Positions 14,508 through 48,538 of a DNA stretch of 64,000 bases are shown in pieces (the first letter of the stretch is position 1; every line of letters starts with the position of its first letter). Source of the DNA: Prorocentrum cordatum (taxonomy: Eukaryota). Position numbers and translations under genes: made by a program. The stretch is from contig CAUYUJ010000002.1 in the NCBI GenBank assembly GCA_963575745.1, forward strand, positions 372,001 through 436,000. Direction: 5' to 3'. Under the pieces are notes generated by a model. It saw nothing but the letters and a program-made list of their open reading frames with translations. It was not told the DNA's origin and ran no database searches.

Positions 14508-14544
14508 TCCGTAGCCATTTTGGTTCAAGCCATTTTGGCTCAAG
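14508..14544 (+). other. Dinoflagellate spliced leader plus tandem relic leader
   Basis: TCCGTAGCCATTTTGGTTCAAG (14508-14529) is one mismatch from DCCGTAGCCATTTTGGCTCAAG. It is followed directly by CCATTTTGGCTCAAG (14530-14544). Confidence 0.93.
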
Positions 14545-17030: not shown

Positions 17031-18190
17031 CTCATGATCACAAAACGCTGCCAGGGGCATCATTTGGGAGCCCCAAGGGGGAGCCGCCCTGGCTGATATC
17101 ACGAGCCCGTTCGCGCCGATTTTGGTGGGACGTCTCAGCTAAAATTGCCGTTTGGCCTCCCCAACATGTCTCTCTTGAGAGCCTCATGATCACAAAACGC
17201 TGCCAGAGGCATCATTTGGGAGCCCCAAGGGGGGCCACCCTGGCTGATATCACGAGCCCGTTCGCGCCGATTTTGGTGGGACGACTCAGCTAAAATTGCC
17301 GCTTGGCCTCCCCAACATGTCTCTCTTGAGAGCCTCATGGTCACAAAACGCTGCCAGGGGCATCATTTGGGAGCCCCAAGGGGGAGCCACCCTGGCTGAT
17401 CTCACGAGCCCGTTCGCGCCGATTTTGGTGGGACGCCTCAGCTAGAATTGCCGTTTGGCCTCCCCAACATGTATCTCTTGAGAGCCTCATGGTCACAAAA
17501 CGCTGCCAGGGGCATCATTTGGGAGCCCCAAGGGGGAGCCACCCTGGCTGATATCACGAGCCCGTTCGCGCCGATTTTGGTGGGACGTCTCAGCTAAAAT
17601 TGCCGTTTGGCCTCCCCAACATGTCTCTCTTGAGAGCCTCATGGTCACAAAACGCTGCCAGGGGCATCATTTGGGAGCCCCAAGGGGGAGCCACCCTGGC
17701 TGATCTCACGAGCCCGTTCGCGCCGATTTTGGTGGGACGTCTCAGCTAAAATTGCCGTTTGGCCTCCCCAACATGTCTCTCTTGAGAGCCTCATGGTCAC
17801 AAAACGCTGCCAGGGGCATCATTTGGGAGCCCCAAGGGGGAGCCACCCTGGCTGATCTCACGAGCCCGTTCGCGCCGATTTTGGTGGGACGCCTCAGCTA
17901 GAATTGCCGTTTGGCCTCCCCGACATGTGTCTCTTGAGAGCTTCATGGCCACAAAACGCTGCCAGGGGCATCATTTGGGGGCCCCAAGGGGGGGCCACCC
18001 TGGCTGATCTCACGAGCCCGTTCGCGCCGATTTTGGTGGGGCGCCTCAGCTAGAATTGCCGTTTGGCGTCCCCAACATGTATCTCTTGAGAGCCTCATGG
18101 TCACAAAACGCTGCCAGGGGCATCATTTGGGAGCCCCAGGGGGGGTCCACCAGGGGCTTCATAGTCACCAAACGCTGCCAGGGGCAGCAT
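17031..18190. repeat. 152-bp satellite, about 7.5 near-identical copies
   Basis: Unit starts (ctcatg) at 17031, 17183, 17334, 17486, 17638, 17790, 17942 and 18094. Confidence 0.97.
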
Positions 18191-18417
18191 TTTGGCTTCC
18201 CAAAGAGGAGTCGACCCGGGCCTCCTAGTCGCCAGACACTGCCAGGGGCACCATTGGGATTCAGACTCGCACCCAGACTCACTCACACACAAGCTCACTC
18301 ACACTCAGATTCATTTCTTCAGAGTCAGGCACACACAGACGTACCCATACTCAGACTCACCCACGCTCAGGTTCACCTAACCCAGACTCCGTCAGAAGCC
18401 AGTAGCGAAGAGAGCAG

Positions 18418-18421
<4 letters not shown>

Positions 18422-18491
<70 letters not shown>
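18422..18491. repeat. (GA)n microsatellite at the 3' end of LINE copy A
   Basis: Pure dinucleotide run. Confidence 0.97.
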
Positions 18492-18493
<2 letters not shown>

Positions 18494-18859
18494 GGACAGG
18501 TAGGCGGACCAGGGTCCGTCCGCGAGGCGCACTGCGGTGCGACAACTCGCATGCACTATTTGCGGCGGTGCAGCCTTTAGATACGAGGGCGGGCAACAAA
18601 AAAAACCCTCCCCCGGCGCAGTGCGACAGACGCTACAGACGGCGGACAGACGATGAAGATCTCACCTGACAGACCGCGTGAGGAAAAAGGCCCCAACAAG
18701 AAAGGCGACGTGCTGGCACGTGGCTAGGCGGCTTGGCGGACCGCCTGTTGGGCGCTTGGCCGCTAAGCGGCGCGCAGTGACGGGGCACCCCCCGCCCCCA
18801 CGCCCTGACACCGTGGACGCGGAGCCACACGTACACACGGGCAGGCAGAAAGGAGGAGA

Positions 18860-21800
18860 TTAGCGCGGGGCACCGGGTGGAGCGCCGCGGAACGATGACA
18901 ACATAGCTTGGATGTTGAGTGACGGCACGGCACCATCGGGCGAGGCCGTGAGCAGCTCGGCGAAGGCTCGCCCAGCACTGTGGAGGCGCTGGAGTAGAGG
19001 GCCTTGACGAGCTTGGGCGGCGGCGAGGTCCGCGGCGAGAGCTAAGCACCTCTGCTGGAGGGCAGCCATAGCCTGTGACAGCTCGGTTTCGCGGTCGGTG
19101 AGGGGTGGCTGCTCAGTACCAGCAGCCGAGGGCCTCGAGACAGAGGCGGGGTCCTCGGTACGCCTGTCCAAATGGTGGACTAGCGTAGTGTGGGACCCTG
19201 TACGCTGACGTCCGTCACCCTTGGAGGGTGATTGGAGGGGCCGGCGCGACCCCAGGGCTGGAGCCGCTAGGGCCGCGCCCCGAGAGGTCAGGGGAGCCGC
19301 TTCCTCTCGCTCAGCAACGAAGGAAGCGTGGGTGGGGCACGAGGGCCTGTCTGGTTTAGTACCCTGCGGGGGGGCTGAAGCCGCCCCCGCGGGCTGCTGG
19401 CGGTGGGGAGGTGGAGTGGTTTGCGCGGTGGGACCAGTCGTGATGCCGTGCAAGGCCGCTGAGGTCGGTCGCGTAGCAGGTTGGCGTCTCGGTGGGGCGG
19501 CATGGTCGGCAGCGTGTGGTATCGGCGGTGCGTCCTCAATGCCACTCAGTCCTCGGGGGTCGCCCAGGTCATGGTTGGCGTCTTGGCGGTGGCCGATATC
19601 ATGGTATGTGGGCGTTAACGCTCTTGGGGACGAAGTCGCAGTAGGGGTCGAGAGGTTTCCCGACGGGGCGGGGTTTTCGCTGGCTGGTCCGTCGTCCAAA
19701 GCGTCCGATCCCCCACCGAAGCTGAACAGGTCATCGTCCTGCTCATCAGCGTCTTGAAAAGGAACGGCGTTGTCATGTGGGTGCGCTGCCGCACTCAATG
19801 GCGGAGTCGGGGGCGCCGTGCGGGTACCCGACGGGGCAGGGTTGGCGCTGGCTGGCCCGTCGCCCAGGAAGTCCAGGCCTCCACCAAAGCCGAACGGGTC
19901 GTCCTCCTGTTCGTCGAATAACACCCGTTGGGCCTCGGCCCAGAGCTCGTCGGGGTCTTGTGGGATGTCTGGTCCAGCCGCGGGTGGTGCCTGGTCAGAC
20001 AGCAGGGGATTTGGTTCCATTTTGTTTAGTTCCGCAGCTGTGAACCCAGCTCTGCGGTGTGGGAGGGGGAGTGTACGATGTCTACGCTCGTAGATGGCGA
20101 CAGCGACTCCATGAAGCACGGTCGCTTGGCGATGTCGTGATTTGGCAGCTTCGACGATGTCGTCTGGAAGGTTATGAGTACGTGCCGCCGCTGTGGCGAG
20201 GGCGTCAGCCTGACGATTGAACTCCTCCGCGATGGGCCCGATGAGCCCGAGGTCGATGCCCGTGTCGCCCTGGTGGCTAGCGACTTTCTCGACGCGGAAC
20301 ATGTTTGGCTTGGCCATGACACATCGGTGGACCTTTTCCCAGAGCTCCACGTGCGTGCCCTGCGGTGGTGAGTGTCCGTCGATGATCCTTTGGAAACCGT
20401 CAACCACCGCCTGGTTGTCCACGAAGACGTGTACGGGCCGTTCGGCACATGCCGTGAGGTGGACAATGGCGAGGGTCTCCGCAAGCTGTGCGTTCTGTGT
20501 GATGCCGTGAACGCGCGCACTGTAGTTCATGCGGTGGTCGATGCCGTAGTAGACGCCGTAGCCCGCTCTTGCAAGCAATGGGATGGCTTGGTTGGTGCAT
20601 GCACCGTCCGTGGCAGCGTAGACCCATGTCCAACCAGTGTCATGGTCAAGGTAGGTGGTGTAGGAGTCCTGGGCTGAAGCCGCAGGATCTCCCTCAGGTG
20701 GGGGCCGCGGTATGGGCTGAGGTAGCGGGTCCCTCGCGAGGTCGGCCTGCAGGTCGAGGAGGGCTGGGTCTTCATCGAAGAGCCCGCAGTGTCTTGTGTG
20801 CGGTGGAAGACGGGCCCACTGCTCGTCACTGATGAGGGTGGTAAGAGGGACTCTTTCTCGGGCCCAGCACTTGCAGTCGCGAACAGTGTGCTCCTGAGTT
20901 TCCTCTTCCTCGTCGCAGTAACGGCAGATGGGGCTGGGGTCAGCGGACGTGTTTGATCGAGATCGTCGCTGTTGGGTGTGGTCCCCGCCCGACAGGTAGT
21001 TGAGGAGGAGCGCCAGCTGCCATGCGTTGCATTTGGCTGCTCCTTTCGTGCGGGCGAGCCACGTGCTGGCGAAAAGGTCGAGGCCCTGTCTGACCGAAGC
21101 CAGGTGTCCAAGGTCATGCGCCGTGGCTTGATTTTTCTCAGAAAGGCTCTGCGTTGTGAGGCGCGCAGCATGTGAAGGAAGGCGTTTTGGGGAAGGTTCA
21201 GCCAACTGATCTGACAGCCCCAGTCGTCGTACATGATGCCAAATGTGGGCCAGGTCCAACGGAGCTGCTGAAGCGTCTGGACAAGTCGTCCAACAGGTCC
21301 TCCCCCGAAAAGGGTCTGGACATGGTGTTGGAGATCCCTGACAAGACCGCAGAGAGTGGCGTCGCGGTTGACCTGTCGCCGCAGGCACAGGAAGACTTCA
21401 CGCTGCATAATGGCGTCAATCTCCAGGGCGTGTCCTGGGACGCACACGGCCATGAGAGTCCAAAACTCGACCCACCTGTTTCCCTTGGGGCGGATAGCCG
21501 CCTTAAGGGCATGGTTGTAGGCAGTTTTGACGGGGCCTGATGGGGCTTGAATGTCAGTGCCCGTGGTACAGACGCTGGCAGCAAGGGAGCGGGCGTGCCG
21601 CGCCTTAATAAGCATCGGTGATGGGAGCTTGCCAATGCGCGGCAGGCGACTAGTCGCCCTGCGAACACGGGCGTCAGCGGTGGCCGTGAGGTTAAGCGCG
21701 GCTGGAGCCGGCGCTGCCTCGGCGTTGATGTAACTTCCGACGAGCTTAAAGGAGTCGACCACGCGTAAGGGCCGTTCCGCCAAAGTGAGCTGGGTAACGG

Positions 21801-24800
21801 CGGTGTGAAGCTCGTCAGTGAGCGCCCACCCCGCCACTTTTCCAGGATGAATGCGTTGACCAGAAAATCGATCAAACTTGGCGGTTTCATCAAGAGATTT
21901 CTGCAACTCGGGCGCGGTGTGGGTAGTGGAGTTGCTGTCGTCAACAAAGGTAGTGCTGAGTGATCGCGGAACGTATCGATGCTGTCTCTTGGTCCAACAC
22001 ACATGAGCAGCTTAATGTCGTCCAGGGACCAAGAGCTTCCCTGGAGGTGACCGTTTGTCCTGGCCAGTTCCTTAGAGTACGCACCGTTCATGCGGATGTA
22101 GCGTTTGTGGCGCCTGTAGAAGTTTCTGCGGACAGTAACGATGTCTTGGGGACACCCCGCGTGAAGCGCAAGGTTAAGGCATATGTCCGTGATGAGATAG
22201 TCGAAACACTTCTGTCGGTCCAGGGCAGCTCCAGCTAAGGGAAGGAGTAAGGCCCTGGCGTGTTCGATGCGCAGGGCAAGAGAAGTGCTGACGTCCCCAA
22301 TGGTAGCTTTGGGGACAGCGCCAAAACTCGTGGCGTGGGTCCATCCTTTCCGCCAGTCCGTGAGGCTGCGGTAAGCTGGCGCTTCCCACGCATACATCCA
22401 AACGGAAAGCACCGAGAGAAGTCGTTGGTCCGTTGGGAGTTCGCCTCGGCCTTTTCGGAGGCACGGGTTTGGCACGTGGAGGAGGGGTTCTGGGATGGTG
22501 CCAGTGCGTTGCATAGCTCGTAGGACGCTGGCGAAGAGGCGAAGAATGTCGTCGGGAAGCTCCTTTGCCTCCTTAGTAGTCCAGCCGTCCAGTCCCCCCG
22601 CGCGGCGCGGTGAACGGGTGCGAATGAAGTGGATGAGTTGGTCGTCGGTGAGGTGGAAAGGGGTAGCTGGTGATGGCGTAGGCAGCTCCTGTCGGTACTC
22701 GTCGTAGAAGTCGGCCCACGTCGGCATGGCTTCGGCGTCATGTCCCGCACGTGCACGGTACCTGCCCAAGATGGGCTCCCAGGTGTCGACCATGAGCTTC
22801 AGCATGTCCTTGGTGTTAGCAACAATGGCGTTGGCAGGGAGGATGTCGGGGACTTGCGCAGGTGGTGGTTCACGAGTGTGGTCTTCGTCGCTGTCCGTGA
22901 CGGGCGAACTACCGTCGCTGGGGCTGAAGCCGCCAGCTTCGGTGTCGGCGTCACTGTCGTCCGTGCAAGCTTCGTCAGGTTTAAAGGCGTTGGTGTCGCA
23001 GTGGAGTTGCGTATCGTCAGGAGTGGTAGGCGTGCGGAGATACGCCGTGGGCGAGCTGTCAGCAGCCCGTGCGTATATGGCCGCCTTTCGCCCGCTTGGC
23101 TCACGGACGCCCTCAGCCCATATCCTGATGCGTTCAGCTTTGGCACGGTTCGCGCGTCGCGCCAGCTCCAAGTCGAGGTGTTGGATCAAAAGGTCAAGGT
23201 GCTCTCCGTGCGGCACTGGCTCGTCGGGGGACCAGGCCTCGGGGAAGTCTAGGAGAACCGTGGGGCGCAGTTTGTGGCATAAGAGGCGGGCCGCGGCCCA
23301 CGTGCAGTCGATGCGCTGCGCGAGGTACGGCGGGATGGCACGGCAATCCAAGTGATGGTGCTGTCCGATGAAACGGAGCTCGCAGAGTTGCCGATGGAGC
23401 TTGCGCAGTCGGTTCATGTGTATCGTGGAAGCTCCGTAGGTGGGGAAGGCGCGGGGGACAACTGGTCGATCTTCGAACGTGGGCGTGAGCCCGTGCATGG
23501 TGGGGGGCTTCTTTTTTGGGTGGTCGGGCGGTGGAGGTGGCAGGTCGCGCAGACGGGTGAGATGGTACTCATGACTGGCCTCGTTAGCCAGGGCGAACAT
23601 GCGCTCCACGTCGTCTCGTGTGTCGGCCTGCTCCATGCGGTCCTGATATCGCTCAGCGATGAGGGTCCCTAGTGCCTGCAGCTCGTGCCCCTCATGAGCT
23701 CCATCGTCGGGCGGATAGGGCGTGGGGGCAAGAAGACGTCGGGCCGTATGGTCGAGGCGACTGAGGTCAAGAGTGACCTGCAGGCCAACGTGAGACTTCG
23801 CAGGCAAGTCGCGAAGGTAGCAGAAGTCGGTGACAAGGGATCGCGCCGCTTGGTTGGCAATGATATAGTCGATGCGCGAAGTGCGGGGGCACTTGGTGAC
23901 GCGGTCCCAGTCAGGGATATTGCCGTAAGTGTGCATGGTGTGGTCTGGTGTGCCCTCAGCAACGTTGAACCATCCGTGCTGCAACATGTGCAGAAGGTGT
24001 GGATTGTCGTCAATGTTCGTATTGGCGTCCATGCAAATGAAGTAAGGGGCTGAGCCGACCCTAGCGGCGGCGCAGTCAGCGAGCCGAAAAAGAGCTGTGC
24101 TGTCTCCTCCAGCAATCCCGTAGAGGCTCGCTATGTAGATCCCCGCGGGCCCGTGGTTGTTTCGTCGCCGCCTGCGGCGGTGTTGAGTGCAGAGCGGGAG
24201 AAAGACCTCGTGCCATCTTTTCTTGGCCTTGAGGGCGGCGATACAGGGCGCATTGTCGTCGACAGTGGAGTCGACAATGGCATCCTTAGAGAGGATGGCG
24301 ACCCCTCCCGAGGCGCCAGTGCTGCCCACAACGGTGTGGTCTGTGCCGCCGTGGGCAGCTCTGCGCTGGGCTCGCGCCAGATCAAGGTCAGGTCCAAGAC
24401 TGGCGTGGTATCCTCCGTGGAGTGGATTGGCGGCGCTGGTAGCGATGGCTTGCCTAGTCGGCTTGGCATGTCGGGTCTCCTGCAGTGCTATGACTGCGGC
24501 GTTGTGGTCGACACCAAGGGCGGTGATGGTTGGCCAATTCGCTGAGAGACTGGTGATGTTAAGGCTGACGAGGTGTATGGAGCGACCTGGCCCGTCTCCA
24601 TCGGTGGAGCTGGGGTTTGCACGCCCCGCACGGTGAAGGTCAGCTTGACCCTCGCCCAGGTAGGAGGCTTGGCCACAGTAGGAGTTCGTGGCGTTCCTAT
24701 GGATTAGCTTGACCGGGGCTGAAGCCGCCGTCAGGCTAGAAATATAGGCGGGACACGGTCGGCACTGCGCTAGGGGGGGTTCATAAATGTCAGTAAAAAT

Positions 24801-26054
24801 GTTACGAAAATTCCTCCTCACTCCAGTACCGTAGGGGACGAGGGGAGGAGAAGTGAGACGGCAGCAGAGGGAGGGGGAGGCGACTCCTCGATCCGTCCTG
24901 CCGAGCACAAAAACAAAAGCGAAACAGCGGCGGCGGCTAGGCGCGGCGGCGGCACAACGCACGCGCATGTACTGCGCACGCGACACCGCTGGTCCCTCCT
25001 GCGGTGGCGCGCCCGCCCCGTCAGTATCTTGATGAGCAGCATCTGGTGGAACAGCTCCAGCAGCACGGTCGGAGGCCTGGCGCTGGGCCTCGTCCATGCC
25101 CGCTGCCGTGAGGCCCACGTTGCGGACAGGGCTGATTCCCCGCGGGGCCGCCGCCGCCGCAGCAGCCGAGGTGGCGGGGGCTCCGCCCCGACTCTGAGGT
25201 GAGAGCGGTGAGCCCCCGCCGAAACCCGCCACAAGGTTCTTGACGCGGTACGTGTTCTTGAACGGGTCGAAGGTTGGCGCCTCGTCGATGGGGACGATCA
25301 CGCGGGTGGGCAGCGGCGGCTCGTGGTCCGTGGACGGTGTCGGCGAGAGGTCGACCTGGCCAGGATCGATGACGCTGGCTCCGAAACGTGGCACCACTTC
25401 GGGGGCTCGGCCATCGGCCTGAGTCTCGCGAGGCGGCGAGCTCGTGGAGCTCCCTGGGGCCTTGCGTGAACTGTGGCGGCTGCAGGTCCTGCTGCGCGGG
25501 ACGCGCCCGCCCGTGTGGCGGTCGCGTGGCGAGGTCGCCTGGGCATTAGCGCGCTCGGAATCCGCCCTGCTCGGGGATCGGATCGGCGCCGCGCAGGGTG
25601 ATGGGCTGGGCTGGCGAGAGGCGCTCGTGCCGCCTTCCGCCGTGGCTGTGGCCTGGTCGGGGTCGACCGCGTCGGGGCGGGGGCTGACGTGATGGGCGCT
25701 TCCCTCGCTGTGCCGCGGGGAGGCGCTGTGATGCGCCTGGATGTGCGTGAGGACGAGCGGGGTAAGCGGCTGCCTCTCCCGCTCAGGTGGGGCAGGTTTT
25801 GCCTGGGCAGGGCGCAGTGCTGCAGCTACGTTTGGCGGGGGCGTGTGCTGGCGAGGTTGCCAAGCGCGCACGTTCGCATCACGCCATCCTTCGGGGCGCC
25901 CAGCCCTGCCACGGTTTGTTGCAGCCCCCTGGGCTGAAGCCGCAGGGGTTATCACTGCGGGCTGGTTGCTGGAGGGGCCATCATGTCGGCCTGAGTAAAG
26001 GCCCCAGGCGCGCGTGGACCCTGGCACTGGCGAGGTGGCCCTTAGGGCCTGCAC
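18860..26054 (-). CDS. LINE pol (ORF3): APE endonuclease - RT - Zn finger - RNase H; two 1-nt frameshifts (about 22000 and 21120)
   Basis: APE: SLNITSL, ALQET, CMDAN, RIDY, SHVGL. RT: GGLDGW, LDRQKCFD, LQGSSWS, FVDD. Zn finger: CRYC...HTVRDC. RNase H: TDGAC, QLAE, VDN, NRQAD. Joins track ORFs 21198..26054, 20527..22002 and 18860..21388; copy C is in frame at both breaks. Confidence 0.88.
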
Positions 26055-26152
26055 GGGTGCACGCGGGTAGCCGATGACCGCTGGGTGTACCCTGGCGTGG
26101 GGGGCGTGGCCGTAGCTGGAGGCGGCTGCTCCAGCAGCCGCGGGCCTGGCGC

Positions 26153-29100
26153 CTATGGGGCCACGGTAGTAGGCGGCAACCCCGTCGTAGGCCGTGTTGC
26201 CGCCTGTCGGGACTCGCGCGGGGGAGCGGAAGCGTGGCGTGCCGTGCTGTCCTGCGTCACGTGGTCCCGCTGCTGGATGCGCTGCTGGTGCTGTTGGTGA
26301 CGCTGCCAGTCGGCTCTCGAGAGGGGACGGGTGTCGGGAAGGATGGTGGGCACGTCGGGCCGCTGCCAGCCCCGATAAACGTGCTCGAAGGCGTGGTCAG
26401 GGTAGGTCCTCCCTACGGGTGAGTATCGCCGCACATGCTCCATGTAGTCGATGTTCTGCGGCTCTGCGATCGCCGTGATGTTGACGGCTCGCTGGTGCGC
26501 TGGTCCATAGAGGCAGAAACTACCACGGTTGCTGCGGTCGTGGTTTAGCTCGGCTTCGGTCGTGGCGCGGCTCACCATGGCGTCGCAGAGTCGCATGTCG
26601 TAGTCGAGGGCTTGAGGCCCAGGACCACCCTCGGCGTCCCAGTACAGTACCACATCTCGCCAACGGGTGCGGGTAATGTGGATGCGCTCGGCGATCAACT
26701 CGCAGACGGTCCTGACCGTGACACGATCCCTGTACATGTTAGTAATGGCTAGGGAGTAGGGTCGGCGGACCGTCTTGTTGAAGGTGAGTTCCTCCTTGAG
26801 GGCCTGGTGGGGACTGAAGAGCACGAAGCCTTCCCTCCAAAGCGGTTGGTCGGGGGAAGGTTCTTCGGGCATCCCCGTTCCTGTGAATCCAGGTGGCCGC
26901 CTTGTGCCGTCAGGCAGTCCCTGCCTGGGGACGCGCCGCGGCTGCGGTGGGAAGTACCATTGACCCTGGTAGCCTGCTTGCCCTGGTTGTGGAGGTTCCC
27001 CCCCGGGGCCTGAAGGCGCTCGGGGGGGTTCCTTGAGGTCGTGGAGGGCTGGCGCGTTGCCGAATTGGCGGGCAAGGATGTGCGGCGGCATCCCTGTGGC
27101 ACGGACGTCGAGCAGGTTGTGTGGCCTGGGGGGGTGGGGGCACCTGCTGGACAGGCAGCATGTGTCGGAGTCCCTGTTGTTGGTGCTGTATGCACACGTC
27201 CAACTGTTGCACGAGTAGTCCGTGGACCAGTCCATGAGTGTACGCAGTCCGCTGCGGCCGCAGTCTGGGCACGTTGGTTGGCCCGAGGTGCCGAGCTGCG
27301 TGTTGCGGCGAGCCGCACAGTACTGACAGCATTGGAATCGACACTGTAGGCAAGACCAGCGTCCTGGTAGAGGCGGGAGCGCATGCTCATTTGTGCCTGG
27401 GTCGTCTGGGTGGGGTCTCGGGCGGTCCCACAAGGGCCAGACGTCAGCAAACCAGGATTGGCCAGTAGTGCGGACAACCTCGGCGGGGAGGCGTGCGTCC
27501 TCGGCATGGCAACTGATCCACTGGGGCCCCATGTCCGCTGGAACCATGACGGTGCGCCAGGAGTCGTCCGCTTTGACGTGGACTTGGGTTGGTGCCCAGA
27601 GCTTAGTAGTGGTGTCGCCGTGGTCGTGGTGGAGGATGACCCAGCCGTCACGCCCGTCCACCGCAGGGTCAGTAACGCGGTGGCCCATGACTGTCGTCCC
27701 CCACGGTAAGTAGGCACCATCGTGGTGATCCCCAGGGTCGAGCCAGACCTCGATGCCAGGGGCATTGACACGGGACCGCACATCACGAACGTGGTAGGCG
27801 AGGACGTGGTAGGCAGTCGGCTCCTCCTCCGTCACAATGTGCTCCCACGTCTCGATGCCGCTGTTGTCTGAGGTGGAGTTCCCGTCACTCTGTCGTGACG
27901 AGCGAGAGGCAGATCGTCGTGGACGGGCACGGCCTCGGGCGAGGGCGGCGGCTGCGCTGATGAGGGAAGGCGTACGGCGTTCGTCGACTCCAGATGACGT
28001 CGATGAGCGGTCTGGACTGTACGCTAAGGCTGTGCCTGACTTGTACGTGCGAGGTGGGCCCGACGCGGCCCCAGGGCTGGAGCCGCTGGGGCGCGACCCG
28101 CGTGCGTCAGGGTGCCCCCGCACGGGGACAGCTTGCAAGCCAGTGTACACCAGGTCGATGAGTGGTTTCGGGTCCAGCTGGAGTATGTGAAGCGAGACGC
28201 GTGGGCGGGGCTGGTTAGGGTCATCCCTGGTGGCTGCTTCCGTGTCGTAGTGCTGTTTGGCCCATGCTCGCGCTGCCTCTGGCGCGTATAGCGCCTGCGG
28301 CGGTGGCCATGCTGCCGCGATGGCTGGTCTGCGCCTGGTGCTAGCTTCCTGGTCGTGAGCTTCAGCCGCCTCACGGAGATCTGGATGATCGTAGCCAGCG
28401 ATGTGGAGGGCGTGCGCGCAGTCGCCCATGCCATAGGCGTGTGGAAGGGCACGGCACCTGGAAGCAGCTTCTGTGGGGGCGCACCAGTCCATGCGGATGA
28501 GGAGGCTCAGGACCCGAGGGTAAATGAGGCGCGCTCCGTGGGCCTCCCCTTTCACGTAGTTGTGCCTGTTTTCCCCCCGCGGTGGTTGGGTGGCCTCGCA
28601 CATCCAGAGTGCGATGGGTCCCCACGCGAGGGTGTCATCTTCAAGACTGTAAGGCGGGTGGGGCGGCATTGCGTACCACGCGGCCAGCGAAGGGTGCACG
28701 CTCGCGTACGTGCGGCCAACGTTGGTGCCAGTTCGGCCCTTCGCTTCACGGCGGGGGCCTGGCAAGAGGTGCCCTCCACTGGCAGCAAGACGGGCCGCAA
28801 GGTCGCCGCGGGTCCCATGCCAGAAGACAGTGGGCGCGTCGGTGATGGGTTGGCGGAGGTCCCACGTGAGGTATGGGAAGATTGTCTCGCCCGAGTTCCC
28901 GCCCGAGTCTTCCAGCACCCAAGTGAGGCGGTTCGGTGGCCTCTGCATGATGTCCGTCCACGGCCCCAGCGCTTGGAGTGTTGGATCATGAGTGAATCGA
29001 GGATGGTCGTGGAGTCGTAGAGCGTCCTTGATGTCCTCTGTAGACACGCCACTGTTCCCTAGCGCAAAGCCGTTTTGATACAGGGCGTTAAGTATGCTCT

Positions 29101-31651
29101 TCGGCGGCTCGGGGACCGCTGGGTCGCGCTGGATGGTGTTGCGTAAGTTGCGTGTCGGTGGCTTGAGGGCAGTGTAAGGCATACCAGGGCCTGAAGGCGC
29201 CTGGGGCCTGTCGGGGGATGCATAGCGTGCCCGCCGTCGTGGTGGTTGGGTGTCCGCGTCGGGGGATGGACCACGAGCGTCAGCGTGTCGGAAGATAGAC
29301 CACGGGCTATCATGGGTGCGCTCACGCGTTTCCCTTGCCTCGGTGTCGCTGCCGTGTGCTGTGGCGTCCTCGTTAGTAGGTAGGTTACCGACTGTTGCGC
29401 CGCTCTTGGAGCCGTCTCGTGGAGTCGGGCTGGTCGATCTTGGTGTGACAGACGAGGCTCGCGATACGGCGGCTGTGACTTCGACAGTGGCGGCGGTGGT
29501 GGCGGTGGTGACGTCGGCGACCGCGGCGGCAACTGCTGCGGCGTAGTGTTCCTGTAGCAGCGGATGTCGGAGTGCGTGCACATGCTGGTCGTCGTGTTCG
29601 TCGGCGAGCGTGCACGGCATTTTGTATGTGACCTCGTCCCTCGGCCTCCTGCTCGGTTGGCAACAGCGGAGGCACCACTGGGCAGTGGATGAGTCCAGGG
29701 CCCGCGCACAGATGCGGGCTCCAACGTGTCCGACAGCTCCCTGGGCAAGAAGTTTGGCACCAACGAGTAGAAGACCACACACGACTCCACCCGTGGCAAT
29801 AGCCCCTAGCTTGCCGCTGGCCCATTTAAGGGCACCCCCGAGGCCGCCCACGACTGCAGTGGCTCCGCCCGAGACGCTATCTCTGAGTTTGACGCTGGTC
29901 CATTTGAGAGTGGCCCTCAATGTGGACGTGACATTGTATGTCGTTTTGCGTCGGGGTGTGGTGGACACCGATGGGCCTGGTGCCGTCGCTTGGCGTCGTC
30001 GTCGTTGTCGGTAGCTGGGGTCTCGGCTCGGTGTCGGCAAGTACCCATCGATCTGGTCCTTGTACGGCATTGCTATCGCGATGACGTACGTGGCCACCAA
30101 GAGGCAGATGAGGCAGCCACAGTGTCGTGATGCCGCTGCGCTGTGCTGGGGCTCGTGGGGACCGCTGGCATCTGGGTACTCATCATCGATGGGATCGCTG
30201 TCGATGTCGGCCTGCCCGTGGTCAGTGGCACTGGAGTTGGAGTCGGTCACGCTGTCACGGTGCACGGAGGTGAAGGGCGTGGTGCTGCCAACTGCGGTCT
30301 GGGGATGTCCAGGTCTAGCCAGTGGTGCAGCGGGGCTGAAGCCGCCACTGCCCGAGCTGGCATGAGCTGGCGATGCAGTGGAATGGCTTGGCACGTCAGC
30401 GGCAGTGACGCCTTCAGCGTCGTTGAGCCGAGCGCTGGGGTCGGCCTGAGCTGAGGTGTGGGGCGGACTGCTTTGCAACGAGGTGTGCCCAAAGTAGGGT
30501 TCACTGTCGCGGTCACTCTGGGCCGAGTTGCCTAGTGGTATCGTGTCGTCTCGATCCTGGGTATCGATGCCGTCCTGGCTGTCCTCCGACGCGTGGAACG
30601 AGTCCATGGATGTGTTGCCGATGTCGCTGGCCGCGATGTGCTGAAGCAGCCATGATACAGGGTCATCTGCGGCCTGATCGGTGGCGTCCATCGGCGCCGC
30701 GGCGAGCTCCGCCTCGACGAGCGGCAGCATGTCTGGCGGTTGGTGCAGGATCACGTCGGCGAGGTACGCCATGGCGTCTTGGTCGGGTGGAGGGAGGCCT
30801 CTTGGCAGCAGAGCATGGGCCCGTGAGAGGTATGGCGGCAAAGGTGCCGTATAAGCCTCAGGGCCGACGAGAGTGGCACGAGCACCCTGGTATTCCAGAA
30901 GGAGGCCAAAGTAGCGGGTGGCGTACTCTCGGCTGCTCTGGATACGAGTGAGGTTGCGGTTGATGCGCTGCCTGTCGGGGCCCGCTCTGTGCCAGATGTC
31001 CTCGCACATGTCGACCGCGGTGCGCTGACGCAGGGCGTCGGTTGTGTCCTCAGACTCCTCCTGAAAGAGGTGATCGTACTGTGGCAGATGGAGCGTCGCC
31101 AGGATGTACGGGACGCAGTCCTCGAGCCATGCCCAGAACATGTCCTGGTTGTCCTCACCTGGTGCCCACGCCGCAGCACACGGTATGAGCCGGGCGCGGA
31201 TCATCATCAGGTGCCAGAAAGCAGGGTCCTCCTCAGGTTCGCCCCTAACGCACAGGGGAGTGGTGAGACCCGTAGGGCGATAGCGGGGCACAACAGCGGG
31301 GCTGAAGCCGCCACTGTGTGTCTGGCCAATGCCGCACGGACCCGCGGCAACGGTGCCGTTCACGATCGGGTCCAAAATGGTGCAGTGATCATACTTGTAG
31401 ATGCTGTCATCGTAGAGGTAGAAAAGGGTCCCACGTTCAGCGTGTCGCAGGAGAACCTCACCTCCATGCTGGGGCGCACCGCCTGAAGACGGGTGTGCTC
31501 CAGCGAGCGAGGGGAGGGCCAGGCTGCAGGCAAGGCGCCACATGATGGCGAGGCCTGGCGGGCGGCGCGAGCGATGAGCCAAAAGCTGCGTGTCAGCACG
31601 CATCCTTAGATACCCTTGCATGCTCATGTACATTGCAACAAACACACCCAC
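26153..31651 (-). CDS. Accessory ORF2 of the 16-kb LINE (up to 1832 aa): signal/TM segments, PARP/ART-like domain, SH3-like, Cys-rich Zn finger, ubiquitin-like
   Basis: Intact 5.5-kb frame between ORF1 and pol. Motifs FWHGT...TYAS..PSLAAWYA, several CxxC pairs, and TVRTVCELIAERIHI...LYW...LDYDMRLCD. Confidence applies to coding status; the domain names are tentative. Confidence 0.75.
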   Translation of the reverse strand: MGVFVAMYMSMQGYLRMRADTQLLAHRSRRPPGLAIMWRLACSLALPSLAGAHPSSGGAPQHGGEVLLRHAERGTLFYLYDDSIYKYDHCTILDPIVNGTVAAGPCGIGQTHSGGFSPAVVPRYRPTGLTTPLCVRGEPEEDPAFWHLMMIRARLIPCAAAWAPGEDNQDMFWAWLEDCVPYILATLHLPQYDHLFQEESEDTTDALRQRTAVDMCEDIWHRAGPDRQRINRNLTRIQSSREYATRYFGLLLEYQGARATLVGPEAYTAPLPPYLSRAHALLPRGLPPPDQDAMAYLADVILHQPPDMLPLVEAELAAAPMDATDQAADDPVSWLLQHIAASDIGNTSMDSFHASEDSQDGIDTQDRDDTIPLGNSAQSDRDSEPYFGHTSLQSSPPHTSAQADPSARLNDAEGVTAADVPSHSTASPAHASSGSGGFSPAAPLARPGHPQTAVGSTTPFTSVHRDSVTDSNSSATDHGQADIDSDPIDDEYPDASGPHEPQHSAAASRHCGCLICLLVATYVIAIAMPYKDQIDGYLPTPSRDPSYRQRRRRQATAPGPSVSTTPRRKTTYNVTSTLRATLKWTSVKLRDSVSGGATAVVGGLGGALKWASGKLGAIATGGVVCGLLLVGAKLLAQGAVGHVGARICARALDSSTAQWCLRCCQPSRRPRDEVTYKMPCTLADEHDDQHVHALRHPLLQEHYAAAVAAAVADVTTATTAATVEVTAAVSRASSVTPRSTSPTPRDGSKSGATVGNLPTNEDATAHGSDTEARETRERTHDSPWSIFRHADARGPSPDADTQPPRRRARYASPDRPQAPSGPGMPYTALKPPTRNLRNTIQRDPAVPEPPKSILNALYQNGFALGNSGVSTEDIKDALRLHDHPRFTHDPTLQALGPWTDIMQRPPNRLTWVLEDSGGNSGETIFPYLTWDLRQPITDAPTVFWHGTRGDLAARLAASGGHLLPGPRREAKGRTGTNVGRTYASVHPSLAAWYAMPPHPPYSLEDDTLAWGPIALWMCEATQPPRGENRHNYVKGEAHGARLIYPRVLSLLIRMDWCAPTEAASRCRALPHAYGMGDCAHALHIAGYDHPDLREAAEAHDQEASTRRRPAIAAAWPPPQALYAPEAARAWAKQHYDTEAATRDDPNQPRPRVSLHILQLDPKPLIDLVYTGLQAVPVRGHPDARGSRPSGSSPGAASGPPRTYKSGTALAYSPDRSSTSSGVDERRTPSLISAAAALARGRARPRRSASRSSRQSDGNSTSDNSGIETWEHIVTEEEPTAYHVLAYHVRDVRSRVNAPGIEVWLDPGDHHDGAYLPWGTTVMGHRVTDPAVDGRDGWVILHHDHGDTTTKLWAPTQVHVKADDSWRTVMVPADMGPQWISCHAEDARLPAEVVRTTGQSWFADVWPLWDRPRPHPDDPGTNEHALPPLPGRWSCLQCRFQCCQYCAARRNTQLGTSGQPTCPDCGRSGLRTLMDWSTDYSCNSWTCAYSTNNRDSDTCCLSSRCPHPPRPHNLLDVRATGMPPHILARQFGNAPALHDLKEPPRAPSGPGGEPPQPGQAGYQGQWYFPPQPRRVPRQGLPDGTRRPPGFTGTGMPEEPSPDQPLWREGFVLFSPHQALKEELTFNKTVRRPYSLAITNMYRDRVTVRTVCELIAERIHITRTRWRDVVLYWDAEGGPGPQALDYDMRLCDAMVSRATTEAELNHDRSNRGSFCLYGPAHQRAVNITAIAEPQNIDYMEHVRRYSPVGRTYPDHAFEHVYRGWQRPDVPTILPDTRPLSRADWQRHQQHQQRIQQRDHVTQDSTARHASAPPRESRQAATRPTTGLPPTTVAP

Positions 31652-31804
31652 AGCAAGATGACAGGTGTCCCTACACCAGATAGCTTGCTCGTGCTGCTGC
31701 CAAAACTGACATGATATAACAAGAAGGAGATATGACGCGAAGTGAGAAGAGATGCCTCTGAAGGCGCTTCCTCGGAGGGCTGAGGCAGGCTCTCTGAGGC
31801 ACCT

Positions 31805-34375
31805 TCAATAGGGTTCCTGAGTGGCCCGACCCTTGTCTTTGCCTTTGTCAGCCCCTGGGGGCCCCGTCCCTGGGGTGACCTGGCCTGGCTGGTCAATCCA
31901 CCCGCAGACAGCCACGGGATCGGCAACTGATGCAGCTTCCTCCTTTTTGGTTTCGAGGGTGGCCACCTGTGGCAGGTGGATGGTGCCCCCCGTGAGGTGC
32001 CCGAGGAGGGCCTGGATGTCGCCACGCAGTGCAGCAGCTTCGGTAGTTGCCGTCTGTTGCTGAGTGACGACGGTGGCAAGCCCTCGTTCCAAACCTGAAA
32101 CGTGCTCCGTGAGTGTGGCCTGGGATGAGAGAACGCCCGCAAGCTGGACCTGCATGTTATCCACCGTGTTCGCAAGCAGCTCGTGCTGTTGTTCCATGTG
32201 TTGGATGCGGGTCGTGGCGGCCTCTGACAGTTTAGGGGCCGTAGCGAAGCGTTCGTCGAGGGTGTTCAGTTCGCGAGATGCCACGCTGAATTCGTCTCCT
32301 GATGAGAGGATCTCGACGTCGTCATTGTCGCCTGGTACCTCGGCGGCTGTGGCAACGTCCCCTTCCGTGTGGCCCCCGCCTTCAGCCGCCACCGTGCCTA
32401 GTTGCGGGTCATGCCCACCTGGTCCTTGGACGGCCGTCTGCTCGGCAGCTCCATCCGTGCCGTGCTGGGGTGCAGAGGAGCTGCGGCCTGGGGCGCCGTG
32501 TGATCTTGCGTGCGGCGTGGCGTCGCGTTTCCCGCTGGAGGATCGGTGGCGCTTGGCTAGAGGCTCCTCCTTGGGGATCGGGAGCGGTGCGACGCCCTTG
32601 CCTTTGGGCGTGGCAGTCATGAGGTCGTGGAGGTAAGGGCTCTGGGCCGCTTTGGTTAGGAGTGTGCCCGTGGCGGGGCTGAAGCCGCCACCACGGGCTG
32701 GCGGCGTCACAGGCTCTGTGATAGTGGTAGGGGTGACAATGGTAACGTTGTCCCTCTTCGGCACCACCTCAGCCAACGGGGCCTCGGTGATGCTCCACGG
32801 GATGGGGCACCCTGCGACCTGTACCGTATATGTGGGTGGGGGACGATGGGCGCGCACTAAGGCAAACTGAGCCGAAGTGGCTGGGTCCCAGGCGGTGTGG
32901 TAGACCTCACAGTCCCATTTGACGGACGGGCCCGTGAGAGTCTTAGCAAGCTGGGTCAGCGTGGCGTGGCGTGCCGCAATGCCAGTAATGCGGTATCGCG
33001 TCTTGGCGAGGGTGGCTTCACAGCCACGGATGCTGACGGCAGCAGCCTTGGCGGCGTCTGACCCTCGTGCAACACGGATCCCCAATAAGCCTGACTTGCC
33101 GTGCCTGACGACTCCTAGGGCCTTGAAGTCCACCGACTTCTGGAACGCATCTGCCATCGTGATGGGCTGGTCCTCAGGGAACCACACGGTCTGGTACTTG
33201 TCTGCAGTGGGCTCGTCTGCACCTACGTTGCTGAGGTCGTAGGTGGCGCCGAGTTGCCCTGAACCCGCCAAGACCTTGTCAACCGCTTGAAGACTGACGC
33301 CGAAGGTGGCAGCCAGGGACCTCTTTCCGACGCCTGATCCGTACCTGCCTAGGCTTTTGCAGGGTTCGAGGATGGTGACGGCTTTAAAGTTGCCGTGGAA
33401 GAGGGCCTTGAAGGTGTCCTGGAGCTGACTATCGAGCTCCTGGCGGCGAGCGTCTTTCTTGGACTCCCTGTGCTTTTGGTTTTGGCGCGCCTTGTCCTGT
33501 GGAGCGGTGTCCTTTCGGAAAGGACCCTTGGCGCGTGGACCACCGTTCACGGGGGCACCTCCCGAGAACTGATCCTCGAAGGCCTGATGCATGGAGGGGA
33601 CTGCGGCGATGGCTTCGGTTTCATGTATGGTCACCCGAATCCAGCATACGTGGTCGGCAGGATCGATGGTGGCGACGGCAACTTTTTCCGTGCAGGCGAC
33701 TTCCTTGGTGCCCAGCTGGTACACGGTCACGGGGACGTGCGTGTGGACCACTTTGGGCGCCTTGGGGTGGCGCTTCAGCACGGGGACGGCGAGCTCGGTA
33801 CCGACGTAGTTATCGTTTTTTGGGCCCATGACAGCAATCGCAAGCTGACCCGTGGTACGCTTACCCTGCTCGAGATGGTGCTGCAGCAGCCGTTCACCGC
33901 TCTCGTAGTCGTGGAGGCTGATGCTGGGCTTGTACGTCTTGCCGTCATCGAGTGATGTGGGTTCGGCCAGGACTGGGACCTTCCAGAAGGCCGGGTCCAA
34001 GGCAATGAATTGGGCGTCCGCAGCCTGAAGACGTGCGGACGCAGCTGGTGGGTAGGGTGTGTCACCACCACTGCGCTTAGGCTTGCTGCGCTGGTGGTGA
34101 TCCAGCGTGTAGCTGATCTGGTTGGCGGCACACATGCGGATCAAGGCACTGCCGAGCTTCTTTGTGTTGGTCTTGTGCATGTCGTACGTGGCCTGCAGCT
34201 CGTCCGCGTTCAGCTCGGCGAGCCCGTTGTATGCGGCCGTGGGGCGGTCAGACCCCGCTTGCTTGAAAGCTGCAATGCAGTCCTGTTTGCGTTGGAGGAG
34301 AGACCCTTCAGCTGCAGGACGTGAGCTCGGCGGCTGCTTGGAAGAGCGACGGCGCTCCGGCTTGGCGGGGGCCAT
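31805..34375 (-). CDS. LINE ORF1 (gag-like nucleic-acid-binding protein with C-terminal coiled coil)
   Basis: First ORF, ATG about 160 nt from the 5' end, about 856 aa. Globular core (YQTVWFP, LGVVRHG..LGIRV, YRITGI) and heptad region IQHMEQQHELLANTVDNMQVQL. Confidence 0.75.
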   Translation of the reverse strand: MAPAKPERRRSSKQPPSSRPAAEGSLLQRKQDCIAAFKQAGSDRPTAAYNGLAELNADELQATYDMHKTNTKKLGSALIRMCAANQISYTLDHHQRSKPKRSGGDTPYPPAASARLQAADAQFIALDPAFWKVPVLAEPTSLDDGKTYKPSISLHDYESGERLLQHHLEQGKRTTGQLAIAVMGPKNDNYVGTELAVPVLKRHPKAPKVVHTHVPVTVYQLGTKEVACTEKVAVATIDPADHVCWIRVTIHETEAIAAVPSMHQAFEDQFSGGAPVNGGPRAKGPFRKDTAPQDKARQNQKHRESKKDARRQELDSQLQDTFKALFHGNFKAVTILEPCKSLGRYGSGVGKRSLAATFGVSLQAVDKVLAGSGQLGATYDLSNVGADEPTADKYQTVWFPEDQPITMADAFQKSVDFKALGVVRHGKSGLLGIRVARGSDAAKAAAVSIRGCEATLAKTRYRITGIAARHATLTQLAKTLTGPSVKWDCEVYHTAWDPATSAQFALVRAHRPPPTYTVQVAGCPIPWSITEAPLAEVVPKRDNVTIVTPTTITEPVTPPARGGGFSPATGTLLTKAAQSPYLHDLMTATPKGKGVAPLPIPKEEPLAKRHRSSSGKRDATPHARSHGAPGRSSSAPQHGTDGAAEQTAVQGPGGHDPQLGTVAAEGGGHTEGDVATAAEVPGDNDDVEILSSGDEFSVASRELNTLDERFATAPKLSEAATTRIQHMEQQHELLANTVDNMQVQLAGVLSSQATLTEHVSGLERGLATVVTQQQTATTEAAALRGDIQALLGHLTGGTIHLPQVATLETKKEEAASVADPVAVCGWIDQPGQVTPGTGPPGADKGKDKGRATQEPY

Positions 34376-34533
34376 TGCGGCGGGCACTCTGGTGGGGGGG
34401 ATAGGAGGTGACGCGAATCAGTAGGGTCCTGCTGGGACCCCTCCGGTCTCGCGAGGCCTGGGAGACTGACTCCGAGGCGGGGCGCTTCGCGTCGCGGCTG
34501 CGGTCTGAGTGCAGGGCACTCTCGAGCCGAGAC

Positions 34534-34534
<1 letters not shown>

Positions 34535-34574
<40 letters not shown>

Positions 34575-34580
34575 GGAGAG

Positions 34581-34622
<42 letters not shown>

Positions 34623-34664
34623 CGCGAGCGCGAGCGCGAGCGCGAGCGAGCGAGCGAGCGAGCG

Positions 34665-34708
<44 letters not shown>
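34535..34708. repeat. (GA)n/(GAGC)n spacer between elements A and B
   Basis: Visible run. Confidence 0.95.
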
Positions 34709-34710
<2 letters not shown>

Positions 34711-35818
34711 GACAAGTAGGCGGACCAGGGTCCGTCCGCGAGGCGCACTGCAGTGCGACAACTCGCAAAACACTATTTGCGGCGGTGCAGCCTTTAGATA
34801 CGAGGGCGGGCAACAAAAACCCCCTCCCCCGGCGCAATGCGTCTGAAGCTACTGACGGCGGACAGACTGTGAAGATCTCACGTGTCAGACCGCGTGAAGA
34901 AAAAGGCCCCAACGCAAGTGGCGACGTGAAAAACGAGGCTAAGGCGGCTTGGCGGACCGCCGGTTGGGCGCTTGGCCGCTGCGCGGCGCGCAGAGACGGG
35001 GCACCCCCCGCCCCCGCGCCCAGGCCCCGTGGACGCGGTGCCTCGCGGGCGCACGGGCTGGCGAAAAGAGAAAAGGTGCACCAGCTGGGAGCCGCATGGC
35101 CCAGCACAGTGCGCAGTGACAGAGTCCGCGGCGAGGCGGCGGACGGCAGAGGGGCGCCAGACGCGCCGAGGAAAAGGTGCACCAGCTGGGAGCCGTATGG
35201 CCCAGCACAGTGCGCACAGGCCGAGAACCCCAACAGGAGCGGCAAAAGCTAGCCGACAGCACAGCGGCACCAGCCGCTGCCAGCTAACCTTTAGCCCCCA
35301 TTGGCGGACCTCGAAAGTGACAGAGTCCGCGGCCAGGCGGCGGACGGCAGAGGGGCGCCAGACGCGCTGAGGAAAAGGTGCACATGCTGGGAGCCGAATG
35401 GCCCAGCATGCGCACAGGCGGGGACAGTGCAAGGGTGCAGAGGAGGCCCTCACAGCGGATGCACCCGCTGCCCTTAAGGGAAAGACCTGTACCCCCTTAA
35501 AATCCCGATCGCATCACTGAATGCTGCTGCTCCCAATCACTTCGCCAGGAGCTGTGGCGGAATACACTAATGAGATACAAGTCGACACGAAAATGCATGC
35601 CGCGGGACCTTGCGAAAAACGACCCCTTTTAGCAGAAATGGGTCGTTTTCTCCGGCGGCACACATTCGTGAGGCGTGATGTCAATTACACACGGGTGCGT
35701 GGGGCGGGGCTGGAGCCGCCACCCCCGCCAGCAGGCGCGGCACACCAGGGAACAGCAGCGCCCGGGTGAGCGAGGCAGGACGCGCACATGCGGCGAGGGC
35801 GAGGCCGTACCACGCTGG

Positions 35819-41609: not shown

Positions 41610-42233
<624 letters not shown>

Positions 42234-45200: not shown

Positions 45201-45389
45201 TGTCGCCGCAGACACAGGAAGACTTCACGCTGCATAATGGCGTCAATCTCCAGGGCGTGTCCTGCGACGCACACGGCCATGAGAGTCCAAAACTCGACTC
45301 ACCTGTTTCCCTTGGGGCGGATAGCCGCCTCTTTGGTTTTCTTTTGTTTTTTTTTTTTTTTTTTTTGTTTATTTTTTTTTTTTTTTTTT

Positions 45390-45424
<35 letters not shown>

Positions 45425-45425
45425 T

Positions 45426-45463
<38 letters not shown>

Positions 45464-48400: not shown

Positions 48401-48538
48401 GTCAAGACTGGCGTGGTATCCTCCGTGGAGTGGATTGGCGGCGCTGGTAGCGATGGCTTGTCTAGTCGGCTTGGCATGTCGGGTCTCCTGCAGTGCTATG
48501 ACTGCGGCGTTGTGGTCGACACCAAGGGCGGTGATGGT
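42234..48538 (-). mobile_element. Second copy (C) of the 16-kb LINE; 3' 6.3 kb only, cut by the assembly gap; pol disrupted
   Basis: Colinear with and highly similar to about 18492-24530. It has its own frameshifts, an 89-bp tandem duplication (44185/44274) and a T-rich insert at 45331-45512. Confidence 0.93.

Follow-up and report, generated by a model that had tools for sequence, protein, structure and literature searches.

Long interspersed nuclear elements (LINEs) are normally thought to carry just an RNA-binding open reading frame 1 (ORF1), an endonuclease and a reverse transcriptase. The closest described elements with more than this are the SymbioLINE-Dnmt elements of dinoflagellates, LINEs that have captured a cytosine methyltransferase (de Mendoza et al., 2018, PMC5890265), and a tie between LINEs and poly(ADP-ribose) polymerases (PARPs) is described in human cells, where PARP1 and PARP2 of the host accumulate at the L1 nick and retrotransposition falls when they are lost (PMC8535693). 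The present analysis concerns a giant LINE of Prorocentrum cordatum, located on contig CAUYUJ010000002.1, positions 372,001-436,000 of the forward strand. This stretch of 64,000 nucleotides is referred to as the window, and all coordinates below are positions in it. An 1832-amino acid (aa) ORF of the LINE, P0001, was predicted to include a very divergent domain with the fold of PARP-type ADP-ribosyltransferases (ARTs). The reading favoured here, which we hold with about equal confidence and doubt, is that this domain, together with a helical extension, is an NAD+-binding mono-ADP-ribosyltransferase that acts in cis at the target-site nick.

Like SymbioLINE-Dnmt, the window LINE combines an endonuclease, a reverse transcriptase and RNase H with a host-type enzyme domain under purifying selection; the methyltransferase of the former is in ORF1, whereas the PARP-like domain of the latter is in the 1832-aa ORF or in the front of pol. 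PARP and ADP-ribosylation had 0 occurrences in PMC5890265. The likeness to human L1 lies in a PARP-type activity tied to the LINE endonuclease nick and promoting retrotransposition (PMC8535693), with the difference that L1 recruits a host poly-ADP-ribose polymerase in trans while the window LINE encodes its own domain, which apparently lacks the Glu on which chain elongation depends. A PARP fold also enters LINE biology through TASOR, the pseudo-PARP of the HUSH complex (PMC7532188), which was found as a structural match (6tl1, Z 4.5). TASOR is a host silencer, whereas the window domain is on the side of the element and has the His and Tyr. As in microsatellite-targeting LINEs with an apurinic/apyrimidinic (AP) endonuclease, the window LINE ends in, and is inserted into, (TC)n/(CT)n beside the tail of an older copy, although it is approximately three times longer than these and has an extra ORF.

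Within the limited full-text collection searched, no retrotransposon-encoded PARP or ART domain was found; papers on PARPs and transposons concerned host proteins such as TASOR and ZAP, and a 2026 preprint on retrotransposon adenine methyltransferases did not mention PARP. Capture of a PARP-like domain would extend the host functions taken by retrotransposons to NAD+/ADP-ribose signalling and, human L1 being partly dependent on host PARP1/PARP2, a LINE that brings such a module itself would be a natural experiment on this reliance. Since the LINE family is very abundant, the action of the domain, whatever it is, would be large-scale in marine plankton genomes.

Predicted fold and residue register of the PARP-like domain

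The translation of P0001 contained the motifs TVFWHGT (residues 941-947), GRTYASV (979-985) and IALWMCE (1013-1019). These and neighbouring features, all on the minus strand, were located as follows.

26153..31651, minus: P0001, 1832-aa ORF with the PARP-like domain (translation; dN/dS 0.13 against contig L001)
28475..28972, minus: predicted core of PARP-like ADP-ribosyltransferase fold, residues ~894-1059 (model residues ~50-215; AlphaFold2 model with pLDDT 75, matches nearly all PARP)
28808..28819, minus: H945-G-T-R948, end of the first core strand, H945 aligned on the PARP NAD-binding His (profile alignment, conservation)
28745..28762, minus: PGPRRE loop, residues 964-969, family-specific and conserved, between the His and Tyr strands (column counts, E969 not counted)
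28706..28708, minus: Y982 of RTYAS, aligned on the Tyr of PARP GIYFA (profile alignment; 11/13)
28673..28675, minus: Y993 of AAWYA, aligned on the second PARP Tyr (profile alignment; 14/15)
28595..28597, minus: E1019 of MCE, conserved, aligned on a non-catalytic PARP strand (14/16)
28517..28540, minus: H1038-G-A-R-L-I-Y-P1045, conserved strand expected to bear the third triad residue, without a conserved Glu
28217..28474, minus: conserved helical extension 3' of the core, with RxDW, SRxR and GD motifs (alignment, model)

Selection on the protein was evident from comparison with L001, a 1423-bp contig with 95.9% DNA identity to window positions 29782-28360. The ratio of non-synonymous to synonymous substitution rates (dN/dS) was 0.13 for the whole overlap (474 codons, 42 synonymous and 17 non-synonymous changes), 0.134 for the upstream linker (226 codons, 27 and 11 changes) and 0.124 for residues 850-1097 (248 codons, 15 and 6 changes). 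By these counts P0001 is a true coding sequence under selection rather than an open frame that arose fortuitously from a high GC content. L001 is filed in a Myxococcales metagenome-assembled genome (a public bacterial bin); as the contig is LINE-like, eukaryotic contamination of that bin is almost certain.

Residues 845-1180 matched 23 proteins at E<=1e-3 among 1.84 billion cluster representatives, 12 of them at E<=1e-10. One of the 12, the 1574-aa repeat protein P0016 (E 5.4e-12), was dismissed as a match due to low complexity, and P0022 was a chimera with a quinone oxidoreductase; apart from P0016, the homologs were short fragments. A 98%-identical fragment came from word-indexed searches, as did two short EukProt peptides (P0029 and P0030, 91% and 84% identical), in which FWHGTR was retained and which were not used as expression evidence; no RNA was listed among the public sequencing runs with parts of P0001. 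Long homologs (1007-3206 aa) were absent from the results of the first search, related loci with flanks were found neither in JGI metagenome contigs nor in viral contigs, and a search of a genome collection for related loci gave L001 only. Two loci with a degenerate WHGTR...PGPRRE pattern were rejected as chance matches after tblastn. The order of domains was kept in P0026, a 28% identical protein colinear with residues 1013-1328, which spans the C-terminal half of the core, the helical extension, the linker and the beginning of the next domain.

Conservation was counted in an alignment (A2, 20 rows) of the window segment and 19 out of 25 collected proteins, leaving aside P0004 (near-identical to the window), P0016 (spurious), P0024 and P0025 (very short) and P0026 and P0028 (C-terminal part only). 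With rows that have a residue in the column as denominators, here and in the feature lines above, the counts for the His motif were 12/13 for H945, 11/13 for G946 and 13/13 for R948, and those for the PGPRRE loop were 13/15 for P964, 14/15 for each of G965, P966 and R967, and 14/14 for R968. Toward the end of the core and beyond, H1038 was kept in 12 of 14 rows, A1040 in 11 of 14, P1045 in 13 of 15, R1053 in 14 of 14, D1055 in 13 of 14 and S1064 in 14 of 14. Invariant Arg residues were numerous (R948, R967, R968, R1053, R1065 and R1067), and residue 980 was either Arg or Lys.

For residues 845-1180, AlphaFold2 with A2 as input gave a model with a mean predicted local distance difference test score (pLDDT) of 75 and a predicted template modelling score (pTM) of 0.70. 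PARP and tankyrase catalytic domains made up 38 of the 40 matches listed when this model was compared with PDB structures by Foldseek, the best being PARP4 (8swy, E 1.8e-3). In agreement with this, VIA-align against 48161 representative chains placed PARP-type domains at all of ranks 1-14 (Z 6.3-5.1, 119-149 residues aligned, root-mean-square deviation (rmsd) 4.0-4.9), including PARP1, 10, 16, 4, 2, 15, 13 and 3, tankyrases and plant RCD1; for PARP1 (4dqy), 145 residues were aligned with an rmsd of 4.1. Below rank 14 were other proteins of the ART fold, namely an ADPR complex, an Rhs toxin, an exotoxin-A-like protein, TASOR, the catalytic domains of pertussis and diphtheria toxins, Tpt1 and Arr. 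When VIA-align was re-run on the best 1000 Foldseek chains, all 50 matches listed were PARPs (Z 6.1-6.7). Several viral PARP-like proteins were matched in BFVD with weak E-values, and the second cluster returned for the domain by ESM Atlas was a viral PARP cluster (score 0.86), a lead only. Tpt1/KptA enzymes have a catalytic Arg-His-Arg-Arg tetrad and an N-terminal winged-helix lobe. Tpt1 chains matched the core only and ranked below the PARPs (7kw9, Z 3.4; 7yw2, Z 3.2; 8tg3, Foldseek rank 50), and no Tpt1/KptA match from Pfam was found in the domain.

A relation to PARPs was also seen below threshold in sequence comparisons. The Pfam PARP family (PF00644) gave sub-threshold matches in 2 of 20 family members, of which P0011 was the best relative (residues 81-139 against model positions 47-102, E 0.0047, 16.9 bits, cut-off 26.7). 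YbeY (E 0.23-0.29; TIGR00043, E 0.085) was rejected because its His motif, HALHIAGYDH, is not kept among the relatives. A PF00644 search of 401 bacterial genomes provided six reference proteins with WGR, regulatory and PARP domains (92-161 bits), and the catalytic domains of these six formed a second alignment (A4). Comparison of A2 with A4 by hhalign (P 0.014 and 0.0047 in two runs) placed FWHGTR on LWHGT/LFHGSR, RTYAS on GIYFA/GIYLAS and AAWYA on the second invariant Tyr, with Y982 and Y993 on invariant Y82 and Y93 of A4. In this register, H945, Y982 and Y993 therefore fall on the NAD-binding His and the two Tyr of PARPs. Weight was given to the PARP fold because the structural match list is nearly one superfamily and agrees with the sequence register; residues ~894-1059 are accordingly described here as a predicted, very divergent fold of the PARP type.

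Compared with PARP catalytic domains, the LINE domain thus has the same predicted fold (Z 6.1-6.7, 119-152 residues aligned) and the His-Gly-Thr strand, Tyr strand and second Tyr in register. It differs in its identity of 10-20%, in not reaching PF00644, in the PGPRRE loop and the many invariant Arg, in a C-terminal helical extension of its own and in being encoded by a retrotransposon. No WGR, regulatory, macro or WWE domain was detected with it.

These results bear on an earlier note, made from the sequence alone, which had seen in P0001 the NAD-binding signature of H-Y-E ADP-ribosyltransferases. Its HGT at 28811-28819 was confirmed on the minus strand, where the codons for H945-G-T are 28819-28811; the downstream aromatic-Ala that it expected was found, as AAWYA, and is conserved; and the His and Tyr proved to be kept across the family (12/13 for H945, with Y982 and Y993 as listed above). 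The ART fold itself stands as a prediction of the PARP type from AlphaFold2, Foldseek and VIA-align, with no significant match in the sequence libraries. A reading of the Glu of IALWMCE as the catalytic Glu of the triad was not supported. In a permissive hhalign comparison, GPIALWMCEA was aligned with the PARP strand MFLAEAALG/FMALARVALG, and the six reference PARPs had E, E, R, R, N and R in the column of E1019. E1019 thus aligns with a different PARP strand and is probably not the triad Glu. The Glu strand of PARPs reads S-x-F-x-x-x-E-Y-V-I-Y, and the ends of the structural alignments suggest that the corresponding position in P0001 would be at residues 1035-1037. By sequence, the domain would be at best H-Y-x, with the conserved H1038 near the third position.

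Structure and copies of the LINE

The LINE and related sequences in the window, all on the minus strand, were as follows.

18409..34530, minus: giant LINE, full-length copy of ~16.1 kb, with 5' untranslated region (UTR), ORF1, 1832-aa ORF, pol, 3' UTR and (TC)n tail
31805..34387, minus: ORF1, 860 aa, no family match
18860..26054, minus: pol, in three frames in the window copy, including a C-terminal zinc knuckle
23844-24512, minus: AP endonuclease (PF03372, 25.0 bits, cut-off 24.5)
21937-21948, minus: FVDD of the reverse transcriptase, second frame (by motif only in the window copy)
20183-20614, minus: RNase H (PF00075, 32.1 bits, cut-off 25.8), in the third frame with the zinc knuckle
18409..18859, minus: 3' UTR, ending in the (TC)n tail, which is (GA)n on the plus strand
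42151..48538, minus: copy 2 of the LINE, 5'-truncated, from pol residue ~509 to the tail (96-97% DNA identity)
34535..35070, minus: fragment from the 3' end of an older copy of the element (87% identical), immediately upstream
19373-32686 (8 sites), 43113-46941 (3 sites) and 37352-37475 (2 sites), minus: 10-mer GGCTTCAGCC

The 3' end at 18409 is the point where the match to copy 2 stops, and the 5' end was placed from the (CT)n run and the older fragment. Since this run and an older 3' end lie upstream of ORF1, insertion was into the tail repeat of an older copy. Copy 2 stops short of the PARP-like ORF and has the same 3' end and (GA)n/(TC)n tail as the full-length copy; its reverse transcriptase gave a sub-threshold RVT_1 match (15.1 bits). 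Within pol of copy 2, an inserted run of 177 bp at 45337-45513 was noted, which is T-rich, or A-rich when read on the element strand. Hallmarks of LINEs were apparent from the 5'-truncated copy, the simple-repeat 3' tail and the lack of long terminal repeats, target-site duplications being unreadable inside the repeat. ORF1 and P0001 share a frame, with one stop (31805-31807) and approximately 50 open codons between them; this stop could be a site of read-through, a nonsense mutation of the window copy or fortuitous in so GC-rich a sequence. A small GGC/GCC hairpin, the 10-mer GGCTTCAGCC, occurred at 13 sites, all on the element's strand, compared with 0.47 expected, and it often encodes G-G-F-S-P within ORF1, the 1832-aa ORF and pol.

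Parts of P0001 were present in 20 public runs from 15 studies. Contigs of four of these runs (X1, X2, X14 and X3) were mapped on positions 18300-35300, giving depths that cannot rank genes. All 30 bins of the LINE region were covered in each of the four runs, and repeat contigs covered P0001 just as they did the other parts of the element; one run alone contributed 90,476 contigs at 85-100% identity. Relative to the window copy, extra bases were noted at three sites, given below as depth with the extra base over total depth.

21118, extra A: X1 925/1347, X2 3497/5460, X14 32/54, X3 197/330
21996, extra C: X1 817/3192, X2 1533/7341, X14 59/59, X3 124/346
26261 (26261..26262, minus), extra T: X1 628/1244, X2 1500/2619, X14 43/52, X3 82/82

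The extra base at 26261 shifts the 1832-aa frame into the pol frame, and the read-through (with X) is open for 3484 codons. Thus, the PARP-like domain is in the pol polyprotein in roughly half or more of the copies mapped. The assignment of the ORF to a LINE in the earlier note was borne out by the endonuclease, reverse transcriptase and RNase H, which follow each other in this order on the same strand, and by the truncated copy 2. Its description as an extra ORF applies to the window copy, where the frame is separate, and fails for the half or more of other copies in which it is in frame with pol. From this sequence evidence P0001 is regarded as built into a dinoflagellate LINE of ~16 kb whose insertion sites are (CT)n repeats.

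Proposed activity and alternative readings

According to the reading favoured here, the PARP-like domain would in many copies be translated as the leading portion of the pol polyprotein and would accompany the integration machinery. Judged by its sequence, it probably binds NAD+. Because no conserved Glu was found where PARPs have their catalytic one, mono-ADP-ribosyl transfer at most would be expected, so that by analogy the domain would be at most a mono-transferase of the PARP10/14/15/16 type and not a polymer-forming PARP. These four PARPs are likewise without Glu in their triads, and human PARPs that lack it transfer single ADP-ribose units. During target-primed reverse transcription the domain would work in cis at the nicked target site, where its targets could be the domain itself, nearby host proteins or a nucleic-acid end, and it would provide the PARP-type break signal for which human L1 relies on host PARP1/PARP2. 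The many invariant Arg would suit a phosphate-rich substrate, whether NAD+ itself or a nucleic-acid end. In a further reading, which we entertain tentatively, this would be the first retrotransposon with an active ADP-ribosyltransferase of its own, which, delivered within the pol polyprotein, would consume NAD+ in marking the nicked target, the cDNA end or nearby host proteins and thereby provide the element's own break signal or block host repair or silencing during target-primed reverse transcription, the conserved H1038 or E1019 replacing the catalytic Glu. The NAD consumption put forward in the earlier note, with its effect on the nick, on repair or against silencing, likewise stays a proposal.

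Several results weigh against a PARP-type enzyme that acts for the element. P0001 as a whole had no significant counterpart in Pfam, NCBIfam or PDB sequences. In searches with its PARP-like domain there was no significant match in Pfam, NCBIfam or PADLOC and no match to PDB sequences, either by phmmer or with the family profile; the 26.7-bit gathering cut-off of PF00644 was not reached, and the hhalign probability for A2 against A4 was only 3-7%. No Foldseek match to the PDB was at E<=1e-3, and Z values of 6-7 are under the level of 8 given as safe in VIA-align's own note. The model was built on a shallow alignment of 20 rows, and AlphaFold may favour PARP through the many PARP structures it has seen. 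With respect to catalysis, no conserved Glu, Asp or Gln was found at residues 1035-1041 of A2, as in some inactive pseudo-PARPs, and alignment of the C-terminal strands alone by hhalign placed A1040 on the PARP Glu with a non-significant P of 0.52. The domain, being under the Pfam PARP threshold, may be inactive. The window copy itself is probably dead by its sequence, because pol changes frame at 21118 and 21996, and at 21996 the broken state (no extra C) prevails in two of the four runs, where it makes up 74% and 79% of the depth; either many copies share this break or there is another cause, such as recoding.

The lack of a conserved Glu at the catalytic position and the failure to reach the PF00644 threshold would also be expected of a pseudo-PARP, that is, an ART-fold module without catalysis that serves in binding or scaffolding for RNA, ADP-ribose or a host factor, as likened to the pseudo-PARP domains of TASOR, ZAP/PARP13 and plant RCD1/SRO1. 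Structural matches to PARP13 (Z 5.9), RCD1 (5.1), SRO1 (5.0) and TASOR (4.5), together with replacement of the donor-loop region by the family-specific PGPRRE loop, point the same way, and we consider this explanation possible, if on the doubtful side. It is opposed by retention of the NAD-contacting His (12/13) and Tyr (11/13 and 14/15), which known pseudo-PARPs have lost, TASOR being without its NAD-binding residues, and by the existence of active mono-ART PARPs that are also without Glu. The same weak statistics (Foldseek E 1.8e-3, VIA-align Z below 8, hhalign probability 3-7%, ESM Atlas score 0.86) and the 20-row alignment could instead mean that the likeness to PARPs is an artefact, in which a coincidental HGT...Y...Y steered AlphaFold and the true fold and function differ. 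This is improbable, given the sub-threshold Pfam PARP match in two relatives, a profile alignment with three key residues in register, a structural match list of nearly all ART-fold proteins and conservation that is concentrated at the aligned residues.

The least probable alternative, and one to which we give very little credence, is that P0001 is not part of the LINE but a gene of the host, or a remnant of some other element, that happens to lie between ORF1 and pol. There is one full-length copy in the window, copy 2 being truncated before P0001, and no related locus with flanks was found, both of which would be in keeping with such an origin. However, P0001 is on the same strand, with tight spacing, and shares the frame of ORF1 with one stop between them; the single added base that is common among other copies joins it to pol; its coverage by repeat contigs in four of four runs resembles that of the remaining element; and it carries the strand-specific GGCTTCAGCC motif of the element.

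Other features of P0001 and the window

Outside the PARP-like domain, P0001 comprised the following parts (residue numbers, minus strand).

N-terminal part: helical region
515-535 and 590-650, approximately: hydrophobic stretches
1280-1400: beta-rich region
1430-1500: Cys-rich region
C-terminal region

A single-sequence AlphaFold2 model of residues 1270-1500, covering the beta-rich and Cys-rich regions, was unusable (pLDDT 36), and residues 1580-1775 gave no lead in ESM Atlas (top score 0.79). Away from the full-length LINE, four further features of the window were noted.

1824-11255, plus: 3143-aa open frame with a sub-threshold DnaJ match only (25.1 bits, cut-off 27.8)
14515-14544, plus: two tandem partial copies of the dinoflagellate spliced leader, one exact and one with a single mismatch
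17031-18151: 152-bp tandem repeat, 7.4 copies, 96% matching, just past the LINE 3' tail
51808-54705, plus: 965-aa ORF of the C-5 cytosine DNA methylase family (PF00145, 32.6 bits, cut-off 22)

The motif used for the spliced leader had 2 matches in the window compared with 0.07 expected, and tandem relics of this kind, a retrogene signature, would fit a dinoflagellate. Going by its sequence, the 965-aa methylase ORF may belong to a DNMT-carrying element of the SymbioLINE-Dnmt kind.

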